Positions 18,488 to 55,200 of a stretch of DNA of 64,000 nt are shown one piece after another. A program made the translations under genes and the position numbers. The first letter of the stretch is position 1; the number at the start of each line of letters is the position of its first letter. Under the pieces are notes generated by a model. The model saw only the letters and a program-made list of their open reading frames with translations, ran no database searches and was not told the origin of the DNA. This DNA comes from Alphaproteobacteria bacterium (GTDB lineage: Bacteria; Pseudomonadota; Alphaproteobacteria; UBA828), in the NCBI GenBank assembly GCA_963422645.2, contig CAXXVO010000008.1, positions 416,001 through 480,000 of the forward strand, in the 5' to 3' direction.

Positions 18488-20375
18488 GTAACTGCCCAGG
18501 TCGTCTGATTTGTCATTTTGGGCCAGTGGATTGAGGCGTTTCTCGTTCGGAGTTGGTGGAAAGGGCTTGACGGGAATTTCGGGAAATGACTCAACAACGA
18601 CATGAGCAATCCCGAGTCGCCGCGCGGCCCTTCGACGGGAGCAGCGCCCGAAACGCCCGCGCAGAAGATCGCCCGCCTGGAGGAGGAGAACGCCCGGCTT
18701 CGGGAGGAAAATGCCTGGCTTCGGCAGCAGAACGCGCGGCTGGAAGAGCAAGTCGCGCGTCTCGTCGAGCGCATCGAGGAGTTGGAGCGCCGTCTCGGCC
18801 TCAACAGCGGCAACAGCGTCAAGCCGCCTTCGAGCGATGGGCTGAGGAAGCCGAATTCGAAGCGGCGAACCCGAAGCCTGCGCGGCAAATCGGGCCGCAA
18901 GCCCGGTGGCCAGCCCGGCCACAAGGGCAAGACGCTGCGCCGCGCCGATCACCCGGATCGGGTGAAGGATCACGTCCCGGCTTCCTGCAAGGGATGCGGT
19001 TCGCCGCTTTCGGACGCGGCCAGGGCGGGAACGCCCGTCGCCCGCCAGGTGTTCGATCTGCCCGAGCCGAGCCCCCTGGAGGTGACCGAGCACCGGGCGC
19101 ATGCCAAGTGCTGCGGGCATTGCGGGACGGTGACCCGGGCGGCGTTCCCCGACGGGGTGTCGGCGCCGGTGCAGTACGGCCCGCGCATTGCCGGGGTGGC
19201 GGTCTACCTTCAGCACGCTCACTTCCTGCCGGAGGATCGGCTGTCGCAGGTGATGGCCGAGCTCTTCGGCGCGCCGGTGACGGCTGCGACGTTGGCGACG
19301 ATGAGCGAGAGGGCGGCCGAGCGGCTGCGGGACGCGGCCTTGCACATACAGGACCTGGCGGCGGGCACGGCGCGGGTGAAACACATGGACGAGACCGGCT
19401 TGCGGATCGGCGGTCAGACGCAGTGGCTTCATGTGATCTGCACGCCGCTGCTGGCGGCGTACCGGGTCAGCGGCAAGCGCGGCGCCCTGCTCTCGGGTGT
19501 CTCCGGCATCGTCGTGCACGATCACTGGAAGCCGTACTTCGCGATGGAAGGGGTGGAGCACGGCCTGTGCAACGCCCATCACCTGCGGGAGTTGCAGGCG
19601 CTGGTGGACATCGAAGGGGAGGCTTGGGCCCGGCGGATGCAGCAGCTCCTGCGCCGAGCCAATCGCGCCGCCCGCATCGCGCTGGACAAGGATATCGCCG
19701 TTCCGGCGAGGCTTGTGGCGCTGATCGAGCGCCGATACGACGAGATCATCGCCGATGCGCTGGCCTTTCACGAGAGCCAACCACCGTTCTCGCCTGGCAA
19801 GAGGAAGAAGCGCCGGAAGCGAAGGATCGGTCACAATCTGGCCTTGAGGCTGCGCGACCACAAATGCGCGGTGCTCCGGTTCCTGATCGACCTCGAGGTC
19901 GGGTTCACGAACAACGAGGCCGAGCGCGACCTTCGGATGATGAAGCTGCGCCAGAAGATCTCCGGGGGCTTCCGGTCCGCGCAGGGGGCCGAGAACTTCG
20001 CCATCCTGCGCAGCGTCATCACCACCGCCAGAAAGCAGGGCTGGAATATCATCGAAGCCCTGACCAGCCCATCGGATCGGCTCATCGCCACCGTCAAGTG
20101 CGCGTAAGCTCACCTGGCACGGGTTCTCCAACAGCGGAGCCATTCTCATAAACGATCATGGTCGACGCCGTGCTGGACCACCCCATAGAATGAAAATCGG
20201 TGCCCGTCGCGCGGGCGGACTTCGGGCCACATCGGGGTAGCTTACCGGTCGCAGTCCGCAAGAGGGGCATCGTGAGCTGTGAAACCCGGCGACCACAGAG
20301 GAGCACACGGGCGTCGCGTGGGTAGCGTTGTGCCGAATCCCAGAGAATTTTCACAGCAAGAACCTGGGCAGTTAC
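18488..20375 (+). mobile_element. IS66-family element (single-ORF, ISBst12-like), copy 1, 1888 bp
   Basis: Ends GTAACTGCCCAGG / CCTGGGCAGTTAC; 8-bp TSD GAATGATC at 18480-18487 and 20376-20383. Confidence 0.95.
18602..20107 (+). CDS. tnpC: IS66 transposase TnpC
   Basis: Coiled coil, NSxNSxKPPSSD, zinc-finger cysteines, HMDETG, VHDH, CNAHHLREL and TNNEAERDLR motifs. Confidence 0.95.
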   Translation: MSNPESPRGPSTGAAPETPAQKIARLEEENARLREENAWLRQQNARLEEQVARLVERIEELERRLGLNSGNSVKPPSSDGLRKPNSKRRTRSLRGKSGRKPGGQPGHKGKTLRRADHPDRVKDHVPASCKGCGSPLSDAARAGTPVARQVFDLPEPSPLEVTEHRAHAKCCGHCGTVTRAAFPDGVSAPVQYGPRIAGVAVYLQHAHFLPEDRLSQVMAELFGAPVTAATLATMSERAAERLRDAALHIQDLAAGTARVKHMDETGLRIGGQTQWLHVICTPLLAAYRVSGKRGALLSGVSGIVVHDHWKPYFAMEGVEHGLCNAHHLRELQALVDIEGEAWARRMQQLLRRANRAARIALDKDIAVPARLVALIERRYDEIIADALAFHESQPPFSPGKRKKRRKRRIGHNLALRLRDHKCAVLRFLIDLEVGFTNNEAERDLRMMKLRQKISGGFRSAQGAENFAILRSVITTARKQGWNIIEALTSPSDRLIATVKCA

Positions 20376-36334: not shown

Positions 36335-36453
36335 CTCCCCCACCACCCCGTCCGTCCAAACGACGAGGTGTGTTCATGGACACAAATCCAAGGGGGTCAA
36401 TTTTGGACGCCGATCACCCCCAATAGGGGGTCACTTTTCCACGCTTAACAACA

Positions 36454-36518
36454 ACCAGGCCGCGGCCGCCGCCATAATCACCGTCCTCAACTCAGGATTG
36501 GGGTACCTGGGTAGTTAC
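36454..36518 (-). mobile_element. 65-bp remnant end of the methyltransferase-carrying IS66
   Basis: Identical to 54816-54880 and ends in GGGGTACCTGGGTAGTTAC. Confidence 0.85.
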
Positions 36519-36521
36519 ATT

Positions 36522-38409
36522 GTAACTGCCCAGGTTCTTGCTGTGAAAATTCTCTGGGATTCGGCACAACGCTACCCACGCGACGCCCGTGTGCTCCTCT
36601 GTGGTCGCCGGGTTTCACAGCTCACGATGCCCCTCTTGCGGACTGCGACCGGTAAGCTACCCCGATGTGGCCCGAAGTCCGCCCGCGCGACGGGCACCGA
36701 TTTTCATTCTATGGGGTGGTCCAGCACGGCGTCGACCATGATCGTTTATGAGAATGGCTCCGCTGTTGGAGAACCCGTGCCAGGTGAGCTTACGCGCACT
36801 TGACGGTGGCGATGAGCCGATCCGATGGGCTGGTCAGGGCTTCGATGATATTCCAGCCCTGCTTTCTGGCGGTGGTGATGACGCTGCGCAGGATGGCGAA
36901 GTTCTCGGCCCCCTGCGCGGACCGGAAGCCCCCGGAGATCTTCTGGCGCAGCTTCATCATCCGAAGGTCGCGCTCGGCCTCGTTGTTCGTGAACCCGACC
37001 TCGAGGTCGATCAGGAACCGGAGCACCGCGCATTTGTGGTCGCGCAGCCTCAAGGCCAGATTGTGACCGATCCTTCGCTTCCGGCGCTTCTTCCTCTTGC
37101 CAGGCGAGAACGGTGGTTGGCTCTCGTGAAAGGCCAGCGCATCGGCGATGATCTCGTCGTATCGGCGCTCGATCAGCGCCACAAGCCTCGCCGGAACGGC
37201 GATATCCTTGTCCAGCGCGATGCGGGCGGCGCGATTGGCTCGGCGCAGGAGCTGCTGCATCCGCCGGGCCCAAGCCTCCCCTTCGATGTCCACCAGCGCC
37301 TGCAACTCCCGCAGGTGATGGGCGTTGCACAGGCCGTGCTCCACCCCTTCCATCGCGAAGTACGGCTTCCAGTGATCGTGCACGACGATGCCGGAGACAC
37401 CCGAGAGCAGGGCGCCGCGCTTGCCGCTGACCCGGTACGCCGCCAGCAGCGGCGTGCAGATCACATGAAGCCACTGCGTCTGACCGCCGATCCGCAAGCC
37501 GGTCTCGTCCATGTGTTTCACCCGCGCCGTGCCCGCCGCCAGGTCCTGTATGTGCAAGGCCGCGTCCCGCAGCCGCTCGGCCGCCCTCTCGCTCATCGTC
37601 GCCAACGTCGCAGCCGTCACCGGCGCGCCGAAGAGCTCGGCCATCACCTGCGACAGCCGATCCTCCGGCAGGAAGTGAGCGTGCTGAAGGTAGACCGCCA
37701 CCCCGGCAATGCGCGGGCCGTACTGCACCGGCGCCGACACCCCGTCGGGGAACGCCGCCCGGGTCACCGTCCCGCAATGCCCGCAGCACTTGGCATGCGC
37801 CCGGTGCTCGGTCACCTCCAGGGGGCTCGGCTCGGGCAGATCGAACACCTGGCGGGCGACGGGCGTTCCCGCCCTGGCCGCGTCCGAAAGCGGCGAACCG
37901 CATCCCTTGCAGGAAGCCGGGACGTGATCCTTCACCCGATCCGGGTGATCGGCGCGGCGCAGCGTCTTGCCCTTGTGGCCGGGCTGGCCACCGGGCTTGC
38001 GGCCCGATTTGCCGCGCAGGCTTCGGGTTCGCCGCTTCGAATTCGGCTTCCTCAGCCCATCGCTCGAAGGCGGCTTGCCGCTGTTGCCGCTGTTGAGGCC
38101 GAGACGGCGCTCCAACTCCTCGATGCGCTCGACGAGACGCGCGACTTGCTCTTCCAGCCGCGCGTTCTGCTGCCGAAGCCAGGCATTTTCCTCCCGAAGC
38201 CGGGCGTTCTCCTCCTCCAGGCGGGCGATCTTCTGCGCGGGCGTTTCGGGCGCTGCTCCCGTCGAAGGGCCGCGCGGCGACTCGGGATTGCTCATGTCGT
38301 TGTTGAGTCATTTCCCGAAATTCCCGTCAAGCCCTTTCCACCAACTCCGAACGAGAAACGCCTCAATCCACTGGCCCAAAATGACAAATCAGACGACCTG
38401 GGCAGTTAC
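36522..38409 (-). mobile_element. IS66-family element copy 2 (inverted relative to copy 1), 1888 bp
   Basis: Same ends and length as copy 1. Flanks GTTACATT and TCTATATT do not match, so there is no TSD. Confidence 0.95.
36790..38295 (-). CDS. tnpC: IS66 transposase TnpC
   Basis: 501 aa; the only difference I saw from copy 1 is NSGNSGK versus NSGNSVK. Confidence 0.95.
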   Translation of the reverse strand: MSNPESPRGPSTGAAPETPAQKIARLEEENARLREENAWLRQQNARLEEQVARLVERIEELERRLGLNSGNSGKPPSSDGLRKPNSKRRTRSLRGKSGRKPGGQPGHKGKTLRRADHPDRVKDHVPASCKGCGSPLSDAARAGTPVARQVFDLPEPSPLEVTEHRAHAKCCGHCGTVTRAAFPDGVSAPVQYGPRIAGVAVYLQHAHFLPEDRLSQVMAELFGAPVTAATLATMSERAAERLRDAALHIQDLAAGTARVKHMDETGLRIGGQTQWLHVICTPLLAAYRVSGKRGALLSGVSGIVVHDHWKPYFAMEGVEHGLCNAHHLRELQALVDIEGEAWARRMQQLLRRANRAARIALDKDIAVPARLVALIERRYDEIIADALAFHESQPPFSPGKRKKRRKRRIGHNLALRLRDHKCAVLRFLIDLEVGFTNNEAERDLRMMKLRQKISGGFRSAQGAENFAILRSVITTARKQGWNIIEALTSPSDRLIATVKCA

Positions 38410-49787: not shown

Positions 49788-50035
49788 TTAGAAGATACAA
49801 AGTGTTGGGAATAAACATGGTAGGTCTCTCCTCATTCCGCATCAGAAGGTAGATCGTAACTGCCCAGGTACCCCCTCTCTCTTATGGAACAAGCCAGTTC
49901 CTTTTGCGTCAACGCCCCCACGCCGCGGGAGTGCCTACTCTCTTGAGCGCGAGAGGATGATGAACGCCGCGTCGCGAACAAGATGAGAGGACAGCGATAC
50001 TCAGGATGAGCCGGAGAAGTTCAGGAGCGCAGTAT

Positions 50036-52547
50036 CAGACTTCCTGACCTCGTGATGCTGGCTGTTCTGGGCAGCGTGCCGGGAACTCCTTGAATTCTGA
50101 TACATTTCGGTTGTTTCAGGCGGTTTTTCGCTGGGTGTCGCGCCCGAGGTCTGATAGTATAATTTGATACCAATTGCACGGTCTCAACCATGCCCAGTAC
50201 CCTCCCAATGTGCCCTCCAGAGGCGGTCTCGATCGGCAACAGCTGCTTCGCCGTCCTGATCTCGGACGACACCTTCACCTACTTTTCCAACCTCATTCCC
50301 TTTGACAGCCACGCCGCCGATGACCGCACGGCCATGCTCTTGCGGATCGGCCGCCTCGCGGCGATCAGCGCGGTCTCGCCGCAGGAACTGGCTGACGCTT
50401 TCGCTGTCTCGCGCGCGACGGTGCAGCGCGCACGACGGCGCTACCTGGCCGAGGGCGAAGCGGGGTTCATGAAGCCCCGGCGCGGTCGCGGGCCGTCGGT
50501 GTTCACTCCGGAGTTGGCGGAGAAGGCGACGGCGTTGCTGGCATCGGGCCTGAGCGGCTCTGCGGCGGCCCGGGTTCTCGGCGTGTCAGCGCCATCGGTC
50601 AACAAGTGGCGCCGTCAGGGACTGATCGGCAACACGGAGGCGGATGGGGAGCCCGGACGCTCAGCGCTGGCTGCGCCGCCTGACGCGGGTGCGGCTCCTG
50701 AAGGCCGTGTCGATGAAGAGAGTACCGGTGCCCCGGGGCCGGAGACGGCGCCGGGGCTGGAAGCGCAGCCGCAAACGGATCGCAGCGCGCGCGATCGGCG
50801 GGACCGGCAGGCGCCGATGGGGCGTGCGACTTGCGATGTTCCGGCTCGGGTTCTGGCCAGTTGTGGACAGGCGGGGCCGGTCGAACCGCAGTTCGCCGCC
50901 GCCGCCCGCGGTGTCCGCTTCGGCGGCGTGCTCGCCGCCCTGCCGGCCCTGCTGAAGGAAGGTCTTCTCTCCGAGACCGGTCTCCTGCCATTGCTGCCGA
51001 AGGGCTATTACGGCTTGCCTACGATCCTGCTCTTCCTGGCCTTCATGACCTTGGCGCGGGTGCGCAACCCCGAGAGCCTGCGCTACCAGGCGCCGGGCGA
51101 ATGGGGCGCCATTCTCGGCCTCGATCGCTGCCCCGAGGTCAAGACGCTGCGCCGCAAGATCGCTCTCATCGCCGACGACGAGGCCGGCGTGCGGGCGTGG
51201 CAGCTCGCCCTTGCCAGGCGCTGGCAAGGCCGACGAGCCGGAGCTCTGGGCGACGCTGGCCATCGACGGGCACGTCAAGGTCTACTCCGGCCGCAAGGGG
51301 CGCTTGCCCAAGCACTTCGTCTCGCGCGAGAAGCTGTGCCTGCCGGCGAGCGCCAGCTACTGGATCAACGCTCTGGGCGGCAAGCCGCTGCTCTGTCTGC
51401 ACAAGCCGCTGGACCCGAAGATGGTCGCGGCCATCGAAGCCGACGTGGTGCCGGCGCTGCAGGAGCTTGGGATCGTTGGCGCCGGGGCGCCGGACCTGAC
51501 CGCCGAGCATCCCGGCCAGCCGGCGCTCACCCTGGTCTTCGACCGCGAGGGCTGGAGCCCGGATCTGTTCCGCCGGCTGGCGAGGCGCGGCGTCGCCTGC
51601 CTGACCTGGCACAAGAACTTCAGGGGCGAGGACTGGCCGGCCGAGGACTTCGGCGCGATGACCGTTCCCATTCACGGACCGGCGGCGGACGGCAGCGCCA
51701 CCATGCGGCTGGCTGAGAAGCCGGTGACGTTGCCGAACGGCTTCAGGGTGCGCCAGATCCGCCGCCTGCTCGACAACGGCCGTCAGGTGCCGCTGATCAC
51801 CACCGATCCGCACAAGCCGATGGCTGAGGTTGCGGGCGCCATGTTCTCGCGCTGGTCGCAGGAGAACTTCTTCAAGTACATGCGTGACGAGTTCAATCTC
51901 GACGCCCTGCCGACCCACGAGCTCGAGCCTCTCGATCCCGCCGCCATGGTCGTCAACCCGCTGCGGCGGGCCTATGACAAGGCAATCCATCGCCTCGACC
52001 GCCAGCTTGGCCGCCTGCGCAACCGCATCGCCGACACGGCCCGGAAGAAGCAGCCGACGGCGGAACTCAGGAGGGAAGTCAGGGACCTCCAGGATGTCCG
52101 CGACATCGTCAGGGCCAGCCGCAGGGAGACGCCCAAGCACTGCCGGGCCGGCGACCTCGACGAAGCCGAGCAGCTCGATGCCTTGCCCGCGCGCGAGCGC
52201 CTCCTCCTCGACGTCATCCGGATGATCGCCTACCGCGCCGAAACCCGCATGATGATTCCCGTCATGCAGGCGCAGGGCCACAAGCCCCATCCCCGGAAAC
52301 TGCTTCAAGCGCTGCTCACCGCCGATGCCGACATCCTGCCGGATCCTGGCAATGGCCTCCTGCGGGTCCACATTCTTGGCCTCGCAAACGACGCCTGCGA
52401 CCGTTGGATCGATGCGGTTCTGAGCGACCTGAACGCCACCGAAACGGTCTTCCCCGGCACCCGTCTGCGCATAGTCTACGACATCGACGGGGCCTCGGAA
52501 TCCGCGCGGCTCGTGTCACCTAAAATCAGCAGAGGTCAGGAAGTCTG
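50036..52547 (+). mobile_element. Unclassified IS-like element copy 2, 2512 bp, nested in the IS66-MTase element
   Basis: Same TIRs as 38594-41106; 5-bp TSD AGTAT at 50031-50035 and 52548-52552. Confidence 0.9.
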
Positions 52548-52548
52548 A
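50190..52548 (+). CDS. Large HTH + DDE putative transposase, frameshifted near 51228
   Basis: Near-identical to 38748-41107. Confidence 0.8.
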
Positions 52549-54076
52549 GTATAGGGATCAGCTGCATCGGTTCCGGGTGCGCCAGGATTTGCAGGATGTT
52601 CCAGCCTTGCTTTCGAGCGGTGACGATGACGCTGCGCATTCCGGCGAAGTTGCAGGCGCCTTGCAGGGAGCGGAAGCCGCCTGAGATCTTCTCATGCACT
52701 TTGTTCATACGGATGTCACGCTCCGCCTCGTTATTCGTGAACGGCGTGCGCAGGTCGGTGAGGAAGCGCAGGCAGCCCTCCTTATGCTTTTGAAGGCGGC
52801 GCGCGAGGTTGTGGCCGATGCGGCGTTTCTTTCGCCCTCGCTTTGCGATCTGGAGCGGCGGTTGGGCCTCATGGAAGGCGATGGCTTCTTCGAGGATACG
52901 GTCCCATGCCCTTGAGATGCGGGCCACCAGGGAGGCGGGGACTTGACGGTCTTTCTCACGGGCGAAGCGGGCGGCCCTGCGCGCGCGCTGAAGCAGGCGG
53001 TGCATGCTCGCCGCCCATTCCTCCTTCTCGATGTCGATCAGGGCCTGGAGTTCGCGCAGGTGATGTGCGTTGCAGGCGCCGTGGCGGACGCCCTTGATGG
53101 TGAAGTAGGGGGCGAAGTCGTCGTGGACGAGGATGCCTTTCAGGTTCTTTTCGACATCGCCGCGTCCCTCGCCGATGCGCAGGACGGTGAGCAACGGGGT
53201 GCACAGCACATGGAGCCAGCGGGTACGGGCGGCGATACGCAGGCCGGTCTCGTCGAGGTGCTTGACCGGCGCCTGCGTGCGGATCAGATCGGCGACATGG
53301 TCGAGGAAGCCCTCGAAGCGCTGCGCTGTGCGCCGGCCCATGGCGGCGATCGTGGCAGTGGAGATGGACACCGCGAAGATGTCGCTCATGAGTTCGGCCA
53401 GACGCTTCTCGGGCACGAACTGGGCGTACAGCAGGTAACTCACCCAAGCGGTGATGCGAGGGCCGTACTGGACCGGGGCGGTGACGCCCGGCGGGAAGGC
53501 GGCTCGTGTCAGCGTGCCGCATGCGCCGCAGAGGCAGCGATGGGCGCGGTGTTCGGTGACCTCGAGAGGCTGCGGCTCGGGTACGTCGAAGACCTGCCGA
53601 CAGGCGGGCGCGCCTTGCCGGTCGGCGTCCGAGAGCTCGACGCCACAGCCGGAACAGGTGGAGGGGTGGTGATCGACGACACGGTCCGGGCTGTCGCTCC
53701 GCGCGAGGGTGGTTCCCTTGTGGCCGGGCTGGCCGCCACTGGGCCCGCCGGACTTTCCGCGCTGGCTTTGGGTGCGCCTCTGGGCTCCGCTTTTCTTCTT
53801 GAGCCCGTCGCTGGCGGGGGGCTTGCTGCTTGTGGTGCTGTTGAGGGCCGCGCTGCGCTCGAGTTCGGCGATGCGCTCGCGCAGGGCCGCGTTCTCCTGC
53901 TCGAGTGCGGCATTTTCCCGGGCGAGCGCGGTGGCTGATCGCAGCAGCCCCTGCCCCCATTCCCGGACGGCAACGACGACAGTGGTTGCGAGGGATGATG
54001 GCTCGAGAAGCTCCTTCAGGCAGCAGAAGGCCTCGTTACGGGCGGCGAGGTCTTCGTGCCAGTGCGACACCGTCAC
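52526..54076 (-). CDS. tnpC: IS66 transposase TnpC (last codons replaced by the nested IS)
   Basis: NSTTSSKPPASD, HLDETG, CNAHHLREL and TNNEAERDIR motifs. GTG start overlaps the MTase stop (GTGA). The original end ILRS* lies at 50021-50035. Confidence 0.9.
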   Translation of the reverse strand: MTVSHWHEDLAARNEAFCCLKELLEPSSLATTVVVAVREWGQGLLRSATALARENAALEQENAALRERIAELERSAALNSTTSSKPPASDGLKKKSGAQRRTQSQRGKSGGPSGGQPGHKGTTLARSDSPDRVVDHHPSTCSGCGVELSDADRQGAPACRQVFDVPEPQPLEVTEHRAHRCLCGACGTLTRAAFPPGVTAPVQYGPRITAWVSYLLYAQFVPEKRLAELMSDIFAVSISTATIAAMGRRTAQRFEGFLDHVADLIRTQAPVKHLDETGLRIAARTRWLHVLCTPLLTVLRIGEGRGDVEKNLKGILVHDDFAPYFTIKGVRHGACNAHHLRELQALIDIEKEEWAASMHRLLQRARRAARFAREKDRQVPASLVARISRAWDRILEEAIAFHEAQPPLQIAKRGRKKRRIGHNLARRLQKHKEGCLRFLTDLRTPFTNNEAERDIRMNKVHEKISGGFRSLQGACNFAGMRSVIVTARKQGWNILQILAHPEPMQLIPILRLPDLC

Positions 54077-54738
54077 GTGTCTTCGGCCTCGACGGCCATC
54101 ATGGCGGCGAGCACGGCGAGGCGTTCGCCCGGCGGCAAGGCCTGGTAGCGCCGGCCCCAGTTGGCTGCCTTGCGCTTGATGCGCTGGCGGTCGGTGAAGT
54201 TCCGGCCTGCGTGGCTGGCCCAATGCATCCGGTCGGGGGCGTAGTTGAACCAGACGACCTCGGTTCGCACCAGACCCTGGGTCGTGACCTGCAGCGCCAG
54301 CCGGCGCCATCCCGCCAGCACCTCGTCATAGAGCGCCGACGGATGGCCCGAGATCATGACCTGGCAGGGCAGAGCCTTGAGCAGCGCGAGAAGCGCGACG
54401 TGGCCGGCCTCCTCGTACTCGAAGCGGTAGCGCTGCGCCGAGCGGCGGGTCGCGTGCAGATAGGGCGGATCGCTGTAAACCAGCTCCGGGCCCAGGAACG
54501 GGAACGAGGCCAGGAAGTCATGGGCACAGCCGTGAACCAGATCGACCGGGTAGTCGCAGACGAAGGCCTCGAGCGCCTGCGCATCGCGGTCGATGCCGAT
54601 CGAACGCACGGCCGGCGGCTTGCGCTTCATCAGCGCCCCGCCCCCAAGGTGGCTTTCGATGTAGACGGAGTGCGGCGGCATCAGCGCAATCAGCGCTTGG
54701 CACAGACCTGCTGTCGCCTTCGAGCCGAAATACCCCAT
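54073..54738 (-). CDS. DNA adenine methyltransferase (D12/Dam-like, alpha motif order)
   Basis: YFGSK (motif X), IESHLGGG (motif I-like), IGID, YSDPPY (motif IV), MISG and RTEVVWFNY. Confidence 0.85.
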   Translation of the reverse strand: MGYFGSKATAGLCQALIALMPPHSVYIESHLGGGALMKRKPPAVRSIGIDRDAQALEAFVCDYPVDLVHGCAHDFLASFPFLGPELVYSDPPYLHATRRSAQRYRFEYEEAGHVALLALLKALPCQVMISGHPSALYDEVLAGWRRLALQVTTQGLVRTEVVWFNYAPDRMHWASHAGRNFTDRQRIKRKAANWGRRYQALPPGERLAVLAAMMAVEAEDT

Positions 54739-55200
54739 GGACCGCTCCCGTCACGCGAGAGAGCAGTCCATAGTCCCGCAACTCTATGAGGTCAAGAACC
54801 AATCGCGGTGGCAGAACCAGGCCGCGGCCGCCGCCATAATCACCGTCCTCAACTCAGGATTGGGGTACCTGGGTAGTTACGGTAGATCAGCATCAGCATT
54901 CCCGCATCCGACGACCACCGCATCGTACGGCGGGGCCATACTGACACCTTATTCGGGCGGCAATTCCGGACGCTTACACATGACTAGCAACCTCCATTCG
55001 AGGGCCGCCTCGTTAAGAGCCATCTCGTAGACGCCTGTTCTCAAAACGGTGCCTGTGACCAGGGCGCGACGATGGCCGGGACATCCTTCCCGCCCGCTTG
55101 ACAGCCCAACCGTGCAAGTGCCAGCGTCGCGCTGAGCCGGCCGATCGACAGGGAACAGCCGGTAAGCGGCCGGCACGGGCGAGGACGGAGGCTGGCAAAG

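Follow-up and report, generated by a model that had tools for sequence, protein, structure and literature searches.

Why should an insertion sequence (IS) carry a gene for a methyltransferase-like protein directly ahead of its transposase gene? The question is raised by a 64,000-nucleotide stretch of an alphaproteobacterial genome (contig CAXXVO010000008.1, positions 416,001 to 480,000), referred to throughout as the window. Within it the interval 49856-54880 is a single copy of an IS66-family insertion sequence that has later been split by the insertion of a second, unrelated IS. The element contains two genes, the first encoding a 221-residue protein with a Dam-like core, here called mini-Dam, and the second encoding the transposase TnpC. 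The answer proposed below, to which a probability of about 0.55 is assigned, is that mini-Dam acts as a portable autorepressor that would set the dosage of the transposase.

A first-pass annotation of the window had delimited a 2.5-kb unit by 19-bp terminal inverted repeats (TIRs) and an 8-bp target site duplication (TSD) once the nested IS is removed, with two genes overlapping at GTGA, and this architecture is recovered here. The two ends match at 18 of 19 bases (GTAACTRCCCAGGTACCCC), the same 8-mer stands on both sides (GGTAGATC), and excision of the nested IS together with a 3-5 bp duplication leaves 2,508 bp, the exact length of the intact genomic copies. On the minus strand the GTG start of tnpC at 54076 overlaps the TGA stop of the upstream gene by 4 nt; in the intact unit the first gene occupies positions 143-808 and tnpC positions 805-2343 (512 residues, ending ...ILRS). 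The 14-bp motif at the ends occurs seven times in the window against 0.00 expected.

Members of the IS66 family have TIRs starting with GTAA and generate an 8-bp target duplication. Both features are present here, together with a TnpC-type DDE transposase (PF03050, E 6.5e-41 and 141 bits against a cut-off of 23.1; NF033517, 289 bits against 180). The tnpA and tnpB genes found upstream of tnpC in the canonical group are not seen, no open reading frame for either being present within the 2,508 bp, and the three matches to PF05717 (TnpB_IS66) in the genome all lie elsewhere. The ISBst12-type subgroup of IS66 consists of tnpC only, and by its gene content the element fits such a subgroup with a cassette added. 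It resembles ISBst12-type elements in its DDE transposase, its GTAA-starting ends and its 8-bp duplication, but differs in having a 0.72-kb promoter-operator-gene cassette between the left end and tnpC.

The source genome (5.9 Mb, 23 contigs) contains 36 uninterrupted 2,508-bp copies of at least 99.7% identity, as well as 69 partial pieces. Perfect 8-bp duplications flank 22 of the 36, and all 22 flanking sequences are different. The element is a very active insertion sequence, and 36 copies with 22 distinct duplications place the 221-residue gene inside the mobile unit. The first-pass annotation had taken the methyltransferase-like gene to be part of the element, had suggested that the element had occupied at least two sites, and had proposed a search for gene-tnpC pairs with different TSDs; the 36 intact copies support the place of the gene within the ends and its movement with the element. 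The other 14 intact copies have no matching 8-bp flanks and some have one flank in common with another copy (C11:31868 and C15:4150, for example), a pattern suggestive of recombination between copies or of duplicated composite blocks.

At least 150 matches to IS66 transposases occur in this genome. Another IS66 type that bears the cassette, 2,461 bp long and with a mini-Dam about 86% identical, is represented by 24 full-length copies of the gene; one example (C8:39646-42106) is seated inside the end of a tnpC-only element. A tnpC-only sibling of 1,888 bp has identical 14-bp termini (GTAACTGCCCAGGT) and 8-bp duplications and gives approximately 79 matches longer than 1 kb, which indicates that this clade of TnpC spreads well without the cassette. 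Several cassette-bearing copies lie 50-360 bp from, or inside, copies of this sibling.

The cassette is shared widely beyond this genome. A TnpC homologue stands directly downstream of the gene in 70 of 80 related loci (28 assemblies), many of which are copies within one genome and not independent. Among the source groups of these loci are Alphaproteobacteria, Gammaproteobacteria, Tectimicrobiota, Chloroflexota, Binatota, Planctomycetota, Bacillota, Acidobacteriota and one bacterium of the candidate phyla radiation (CPR). Two IS66 lineages can be distinguished. In lineage A the ends read GTAACTRCCCAGGT, TnpC is 61-92% identical to that of the element in the window where intact and the 4-nt gene overlap is present; in close IS66 relatives the tblastn alignment begins at residue 1 of TnpC, 4 nt before the end of the first gene. 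Lineage B has different ends (GTAACTACTCACCC) and elements of 2.25-2.30 kb, with a perfect 8-bp duplication in one of the three copies that have both flanks. Compared with the element in the window its TnpC is only about 30% identical, whereas its first gene is 68-70% identical.

In seven further loci the transposase that follows the gene belongs to the IS701 family (NF049999, 309-313 bits, the cut-off being 170). A 2.78-kb element with ends of its own (CTCGACTTTGTACATTT) accounts for six of the seven, and 5-bp CTNAG duplications flank all six copies. The nucleotide similarity between the IS66 and IS701-type elements runs from IS position 86, at the -35 box, to position 809, at the stop codon, and no further. 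In the IS701-type and lineage B elements the gene and the transposase are separated by 30-67 nt and do not overlap. Three loci (L068, L071 and L082) keep the IS66-type left end but have lost TnpC. An IS630-type transposase that follows the gene in L068 was considered as a fourth partner family and rejected; a later insertion is likelier, because L068 and L071 have only 828 bp around the gene in common.

The IS-borne proteins group as a single clade in a maximum-likelihood tree (support 100/97), with a protein of a Xanthomonas plasmid as sister and the IS701-linked proteins nested within lineage A. On these sequence comparisons the unit of promoter, operator, leader and gene is a portable cassette, carried by two deep IS66 lineages and by the IS701 family. 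A six-frame search of an even sample of 400 other genomes of the same phylum found the full-length protein in only two, the other 11 matching genomes giving partial matches to ordinary Dam-like genes. The element is therefore uncommon overall, with bursts of expansion in some genomes.

The ratio of nonsynonymous to synonymous substitution rates (dN/dS) is 0.12-0.33 for the mini-Dam gene; the same element pairs give 0.24-0.41 for tnpC. By this measure the mini-Dam gene is under purifying selection. In those pairs (L013-L055 against the intact IS) dS itself is lower in the cassette gene (0.08-0.36) than in tnpC (0.27-0.59), which hints that cassettes have been exchanged between elements more recently than tnpC diverged. 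One database protein (P0126) has the start of mini-Dam fused to the C-terminal part of an IS66 TnpC and probably arose by deletion within such an element or through misassembly.

The protein itself has the core of a Dam methyltransferase in a reduced form. Its scores fall below the cut-offs of both PF02086 (12.1 bits against 22) and TIGR00571 (22.1 bits against 114.85, covering residues 85-150 only), and a single-sequence search of the PDB chains gave no match. A family profile built from 54 diverse relatives does match DpnM (E 2.3e-10), in two blocks that pair profile positions 2-64 with DpnM 16-76 and positions 81-159 with DpnM 183-266, such that DpnM 77-182 corresponds to only about 16 residues. 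The AlphaFold (AF2) model of the 221-residue protein has a mean predicted local distance difference test (pLDDT) score of 92.1. VIA-align superimposes it on E. coli Dam (EcoDam) with Z 17.6 and a root mean squared deviation of 2.2 Å for 147 residues, on T4 Dam with Z 17.6 for 151 aligned residues, and on DpnM with Z 16.8. Model residues 1-167 are aligned with a span of about 263 Dam residues (approximately 8-270), and residues 170-221 form two long predicted helices (181-199 and 203-220) that lie outside all structural matches. A homodimer prediction scored 0.19 against a mark of 0.42, a result that speaks neither for nor against a dimer.

By profile and model the catalytic core is Dam-like, and the recognition insert of Dam, approximately 100 residues long, has no counterpart in it. 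In the solved Dam enzymes it is this insert that reads the DNA sequence (GATC). With Dam, DpnM and T4 Dam (D12 class) mini-Dam shares the catalytic fold, the glycine motif for S-adenosylmethionine (SAM), the DPPY motif and a Rossmann-type core, but it differs from them in the missing insert and in the additional C-terminal tail. Seven positions (G5, H23, G32, D90, P91, P92 and H113) do not vary across the 54 members, and K7, E28 and Y93 hardly vary. The label of DPPY-type methyltransferase given by the first-pass annotation is thus apt for the core and its motifs, but as a statement of activity it goes beyond homology, given the missing insert and the scores below cut-off. The family is large: a protein search finds 3,706 members down to E 1e-3, and a representative search gives 5,660 clusters at 50% identity.

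The relative that bears most directly on function is Upf31. A tblastn search of PLSDB matched 196 plasmid records, none of them reaching 60% identity. Conjugative plasmids account for 134 of the records, and the matches include IncP-1beta genes annotated upf31.0 and the gene of pBP136. BLASTP aligns pBP136 Upf31 with residues 1-218 of the 221-residue protein (45% identity, E 8e-68). Upf31 keeps HLGGG and DPPY, is of similar size (224 against 221 residues), has a basic two-helix C-terminal tail within the full-length similarity, and likewise has a palindrome at its own sigma-70-type promoter. It differs in being a plasmid backbone gene with no transposase beside it. A DNA search of PLSDB with locus L093 including its flank matched only the flanking IS110, and at that sensitivity the element was not found.

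According to the preprint on Upf31, the protein gives no Dam-type GATC methylation by digests and no single-molecule real-time (SMRT) kinetic signal in methylase-free E. coli (bioRxiv 10.1101/2024.02.05.579024). The preprint also reports that it represses its own promoter from 4.76 to 0.09 XylE units, that a C-terminal dimerisation domain is required, that residues 1-174 are globular with a tail thereafter, and that it probably binds inverted CAGCATCG repeats (bioRxiv 10.1101/2024.02.05.579024). In the published paper, Elg et al. leave other substrates, such as RNA, possible and describe a homologue search by BLASTN in plasmids only (PMC11997246; Mol Biol Evol 2025); the words transposase and insertion sequence do not occur in it.

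Upstream of the mini-Dam gene lies a putative promoter that encloses, between its -35 and -10 boxes, a palindrome, CATAG-N10-CTATG, the candidate operator. The promoter was called from conservation alone: TTGAC, TAG and CTAT do not vary among 27 distinct upstream regions, giving the pattern TTGAC-N3-ATAG-N10-CTAT-G. The palindrome occurs once in the window against 0.01 expected. All 59 of its occurrences in the genome carry the spacer of the IS, and 57 lie within 120 nt of the start of this gene. The Xanthomonas plasmid sister, which is the nearest relative outside insertion sequences and is borne by a conjugative plasmid, also carries CATAG-N10-CTATG, and the 2,461-bp type has the variant TATAG-N10-CCTAT. 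In the corresponding place the promoter of a distant chromosomal member (L094) has a different, perfect 10-bp palindrome (TTGACATCATCGTC-N6-GACGATGATG), and the palindrome of the upf31 promoter, likewise so placed, reads TTGACAGCATCG. The promoter of the cassette is the only conserved promoter ahead of tnpC.

Between promoter and gene, per-sequence folding predicts a hairpin over the ribosome-binding motif in 27 of 27 leaders, with modest z-scores (-0.2 to -3.4). The arms differ by lineage, being GCGCUCUC/GGGAGCGC in one and GAUCCAA/UUGGAUC in the other. RNAalifold on the aligned leaders returned only the DNA palindrome, because the hairpin arms of the two clades are offset in the alignment.

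The homology to Upf31 and the position of the palindrome together suggest autorepression. A mini-Dam dimer would bind the CATAG-N10-CTATG palindrome and repress its own promoter, and transposase output would be held down by the same negative feedback, tnpC being the second gene of the operon. Such feedback could also act in trans between copies of the element. That unrelated transposases have acquired the cassette argues for a role that is general and independent of the transposase. Of the roles that the first-pass annotation had offered for the gene, regulation of the promoter comes closest to this, with binding a likelier mechanism than methylation.

Several observations weigh against autorepression. 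The invariant catalytic residues argue for a working enzyme and would be needless in a pure repressor, and models of type II methyltransferases match the protein (PADLOC PDLC03244, E 5.6e-22; PHROG 56, E 2e-17). Distant members of the family are coupled to a gene for a glycosylase-like protein (Ogg-HhH, PF22175). A promoter scan of 54000-54900 found no sites, and lineage A has a weak -10 box, TATGGA. Conservation is the sole basis for the candidate operator, and the right half of the palindrome runs into the -10 box, a site that would be conserved in any case. The half-site of Upf31, CAGCATCG, differs from the CATAG of the element, and Upf31 is proposed to act via KorB, which has no counterpart in the element, so that function would be transferred across 45% identity and between differing operators. 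Finally, 36 or more intact copies have been reached, and any repression must therefore be leaky.

Two of the distant members (L094:1426-2948 and L095:716-2292) are 42-45% identical to mini-Dam and overlap a 257-residue Ogg-HhH gene by 4 nt, with a RadC gene nearby in L095. From this arrangement a distant mini-Dam and its Ogg-HhH partner may constitute a methylase-glycosylase pair.

The first alternative to be weighed makes the protein an active orphan N6-adenine DNA methyltransferase that modifies host and element DNA at a short motif, and so shields incoming DNA from restriction, changes the host methylome, or sensitises the ends or the promoter of the element. The retained SAM and DPPY motifs, the match to type II methyltransferase models and the glycosylase-coupled members would keep a methyl-transfer function alive, and the Dam-like fold, the DpnM profile match and the purifying selection are in keeping with it. 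Many relatives are also found on conjugative plasmids, where orphan methylases are common. The missing recognition insert and the negative results with Upf31 nevertheless argue against a general DNA methylase, as do the scores below the Pfam and TIGRFAM cut-offs. On the evidence from outside the window, the methylation roles suggested by the first-pass annotation are weakened, and this explanation appears possible but unlikely. GTAC, which is present in both kinds of terminal repeat, was considered as a methylation target and dropped as a post hoc observation.

A variant, which is judged a slimmer chance still, is that mini-Dam is a narrowly aimed methyltransferase that has no recognition domain of its own, is positioned by its dimeric tail on the palindrome and methylates adenines only there. 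Methylation restricted to the operator would explain the absence of a genome-wide signal from Upf31 despite the kept catalytic residues. If true, it would amount to a self-encoded, replication-coupled epigenetic switch for transposase expression that is passed among plasmids, IS66 and IS701 elements. It would resemble the control of IS10 by Dam, except that in IS10 the methylase belongs to the host and here it is carried by the element itself.

A third explanation has mini-Dam as an obligatory transposition cofactor in place of TnpA and TnpB, for example bringing TnpC to the ends or aiding assembly of the complex. The first-pass annotation had placed the gene where tnpA and tnpB normally stand, and the upstream position, the GTGA overlap kept in close relatives, the lack of tnpA and tnpB from the element and the scarcity of tnpB in this genome are what would be expected of such a role. 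It is contradicted by the tnpC-only sibling, which has the same ends and more copies, so that the cassette is not a substitute for TnpA/TnpB; by the use of the same cassette in the IS701 family, whose transposases are unrelated to TnpC, as well as with a TnpC lineage of about 30% identity; by the intergenic gaps in those elements; and by the absence of the palindrome from the element ends. A cofactor role is accordingly regarded as very improbable. Equally hard to sustain is a plain passenger gene with no role in the biology of the element (a 'transporter IS'): insertion sequences with passenger genes are described (PMC3129680), and relatives of the gene occur without transposases on plasmids and chromosomes, but in three IS lineages the gene always stands directly ahead of the transposase and in one orientation, it holds the only conserved promoter ahead of tnpC, it is translationally coupled to tnpC here, and its dN/dS does not exceed that of the transposase.

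The autorepressor reading would place the element beside known systems of transposase control. IS1 InsA and IS911 OrfA are small upstream repressors, and Dam controls IS10 and IS50. As in those cases, an element product or methylation of a promoter would limit the transposase and act in trans. The fold of mini-Dam is unrelated to those of InsA and OrfA, its putative operator is internal and not within a terminal repeat, and the regulator is a swappable cassette found in different IS families. The element appears to combine kinds that are each known, namely an accessory cassette within an IS66 or IS701 element and a regulator of the Upf31 type. Literature searches, which did not extend to ISfinder, TnPedia or REBASE, turned up no account of an IS66 or IS701 element that bears a methylase-like or Upf31-like gene.

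Automated annotation labels thousands of such proteins 'DNA adenine methylase', and yet the sole member tested in the laboratory, Upf31, did not methylate DNA. Surveys of methylomes and of restriction-modification systems in which these genes are tallied as orphan methylases call for caution. The presence of the family in a highly active IS with a conserved palindromic promoter offers a compact system in which the function of a truncated Dam core could be studied. It also suggests that the regulation of a transposase can be passed on as an exchangeable module among plasmids and IS families that are unrelated to each other, which bears on the control of IS copy number and on escape from it (in this genome, 36 intact copies and dozens of broken ones).

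The features of the window are collected in Table 1. The mini-Dam of the window has M37 where that of a reference intact copy from the same genome (C9:348571-351078) has T37. The nested IS entered two codons before the stop of tnpC, and therefore only the last residues of the protein are altered, TnpC here ending ...ILRLPDLC instead of ...ILRS. The severed terminal 179 bp match at least 70 genomic copies at 99.4-100% identity.

Table 1. Coordinates of the element, its parts and related features (window positions; IRL and IRR, left and right inverted repeats; UTR, untranslated region)
Feature	Position	Strand	Remarks
TSD, left copy	49848-49855	.	GGTAGATC; identical 8-mer at 54881-54888
IRR, tnpC-distal inverted end	49856-49874	+	GTAACTGCCCAGGTACCCC
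IS terminal 179 bp	49856-50034	-	Last tnpC codons and non-coding end; severed by nested IS
Nested unrelated IS	50035-52548	+	Perfect 17-bp inverted ends (TCAGACTTCCTGACCTC)
tnpC, IS66-family DDE transposase	52526-54076	-	PF03050 and NF033517
Upf31-like mini-Dam gene	54073-54738	-	221 residues; HLGGGA and DPPY
Predicted 5' UTR hairpin	54742-54766	-	3' arm holds GGAG ribosome-binding motif
Putative promoter	54767-54795	-	TTGACC 54790-54795, 17-nt spacer, TATGGA 54767-54772
Putative operator	54769-54788	-	Palindrome CATAG-N10-CTATG, inside putative promoter
IRL, cassette-side inverted end	54862-54880	-	GTAACTACCCAGGTACCCC on minus strand
TSD, right copy	54881-54888	.	GGTAGATC; identical 8-mer at 49848-49855
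Solo cassette-side end of another copy	36453-36518	+	66-bp remnant; 100% identity, IS positions 2443-2508
tnpC-only sibling, first copy	18488-20375		
tnpC-only sibling, second copy	36522-38409		

The solo end had also been reported by the first-pass annotation, with a start at 36454; it is real, begins one base earlier and represents the methylase-proximal end. It corresponds to C9:452453-452518 and lies 3 bp from a tnpC-only IS66 element. The transposase of the nested IS matches PF21804, and no NCBIfam transposase model matches it. The genome holds 67 full-length copies of this IS, of which eight have a single open frame of about 795 codons; the copy described here and most others have two overlapping frames (here 50190-51716 and 51211-52548), which could reflect frameshift variants or long-read indel errors. 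Directly to the left of the element is an IS1595-family transposase gene (PF12762, PF12760; 48742-49707, minus strand), and the surrounding region is a pile-up of insertion sequences.

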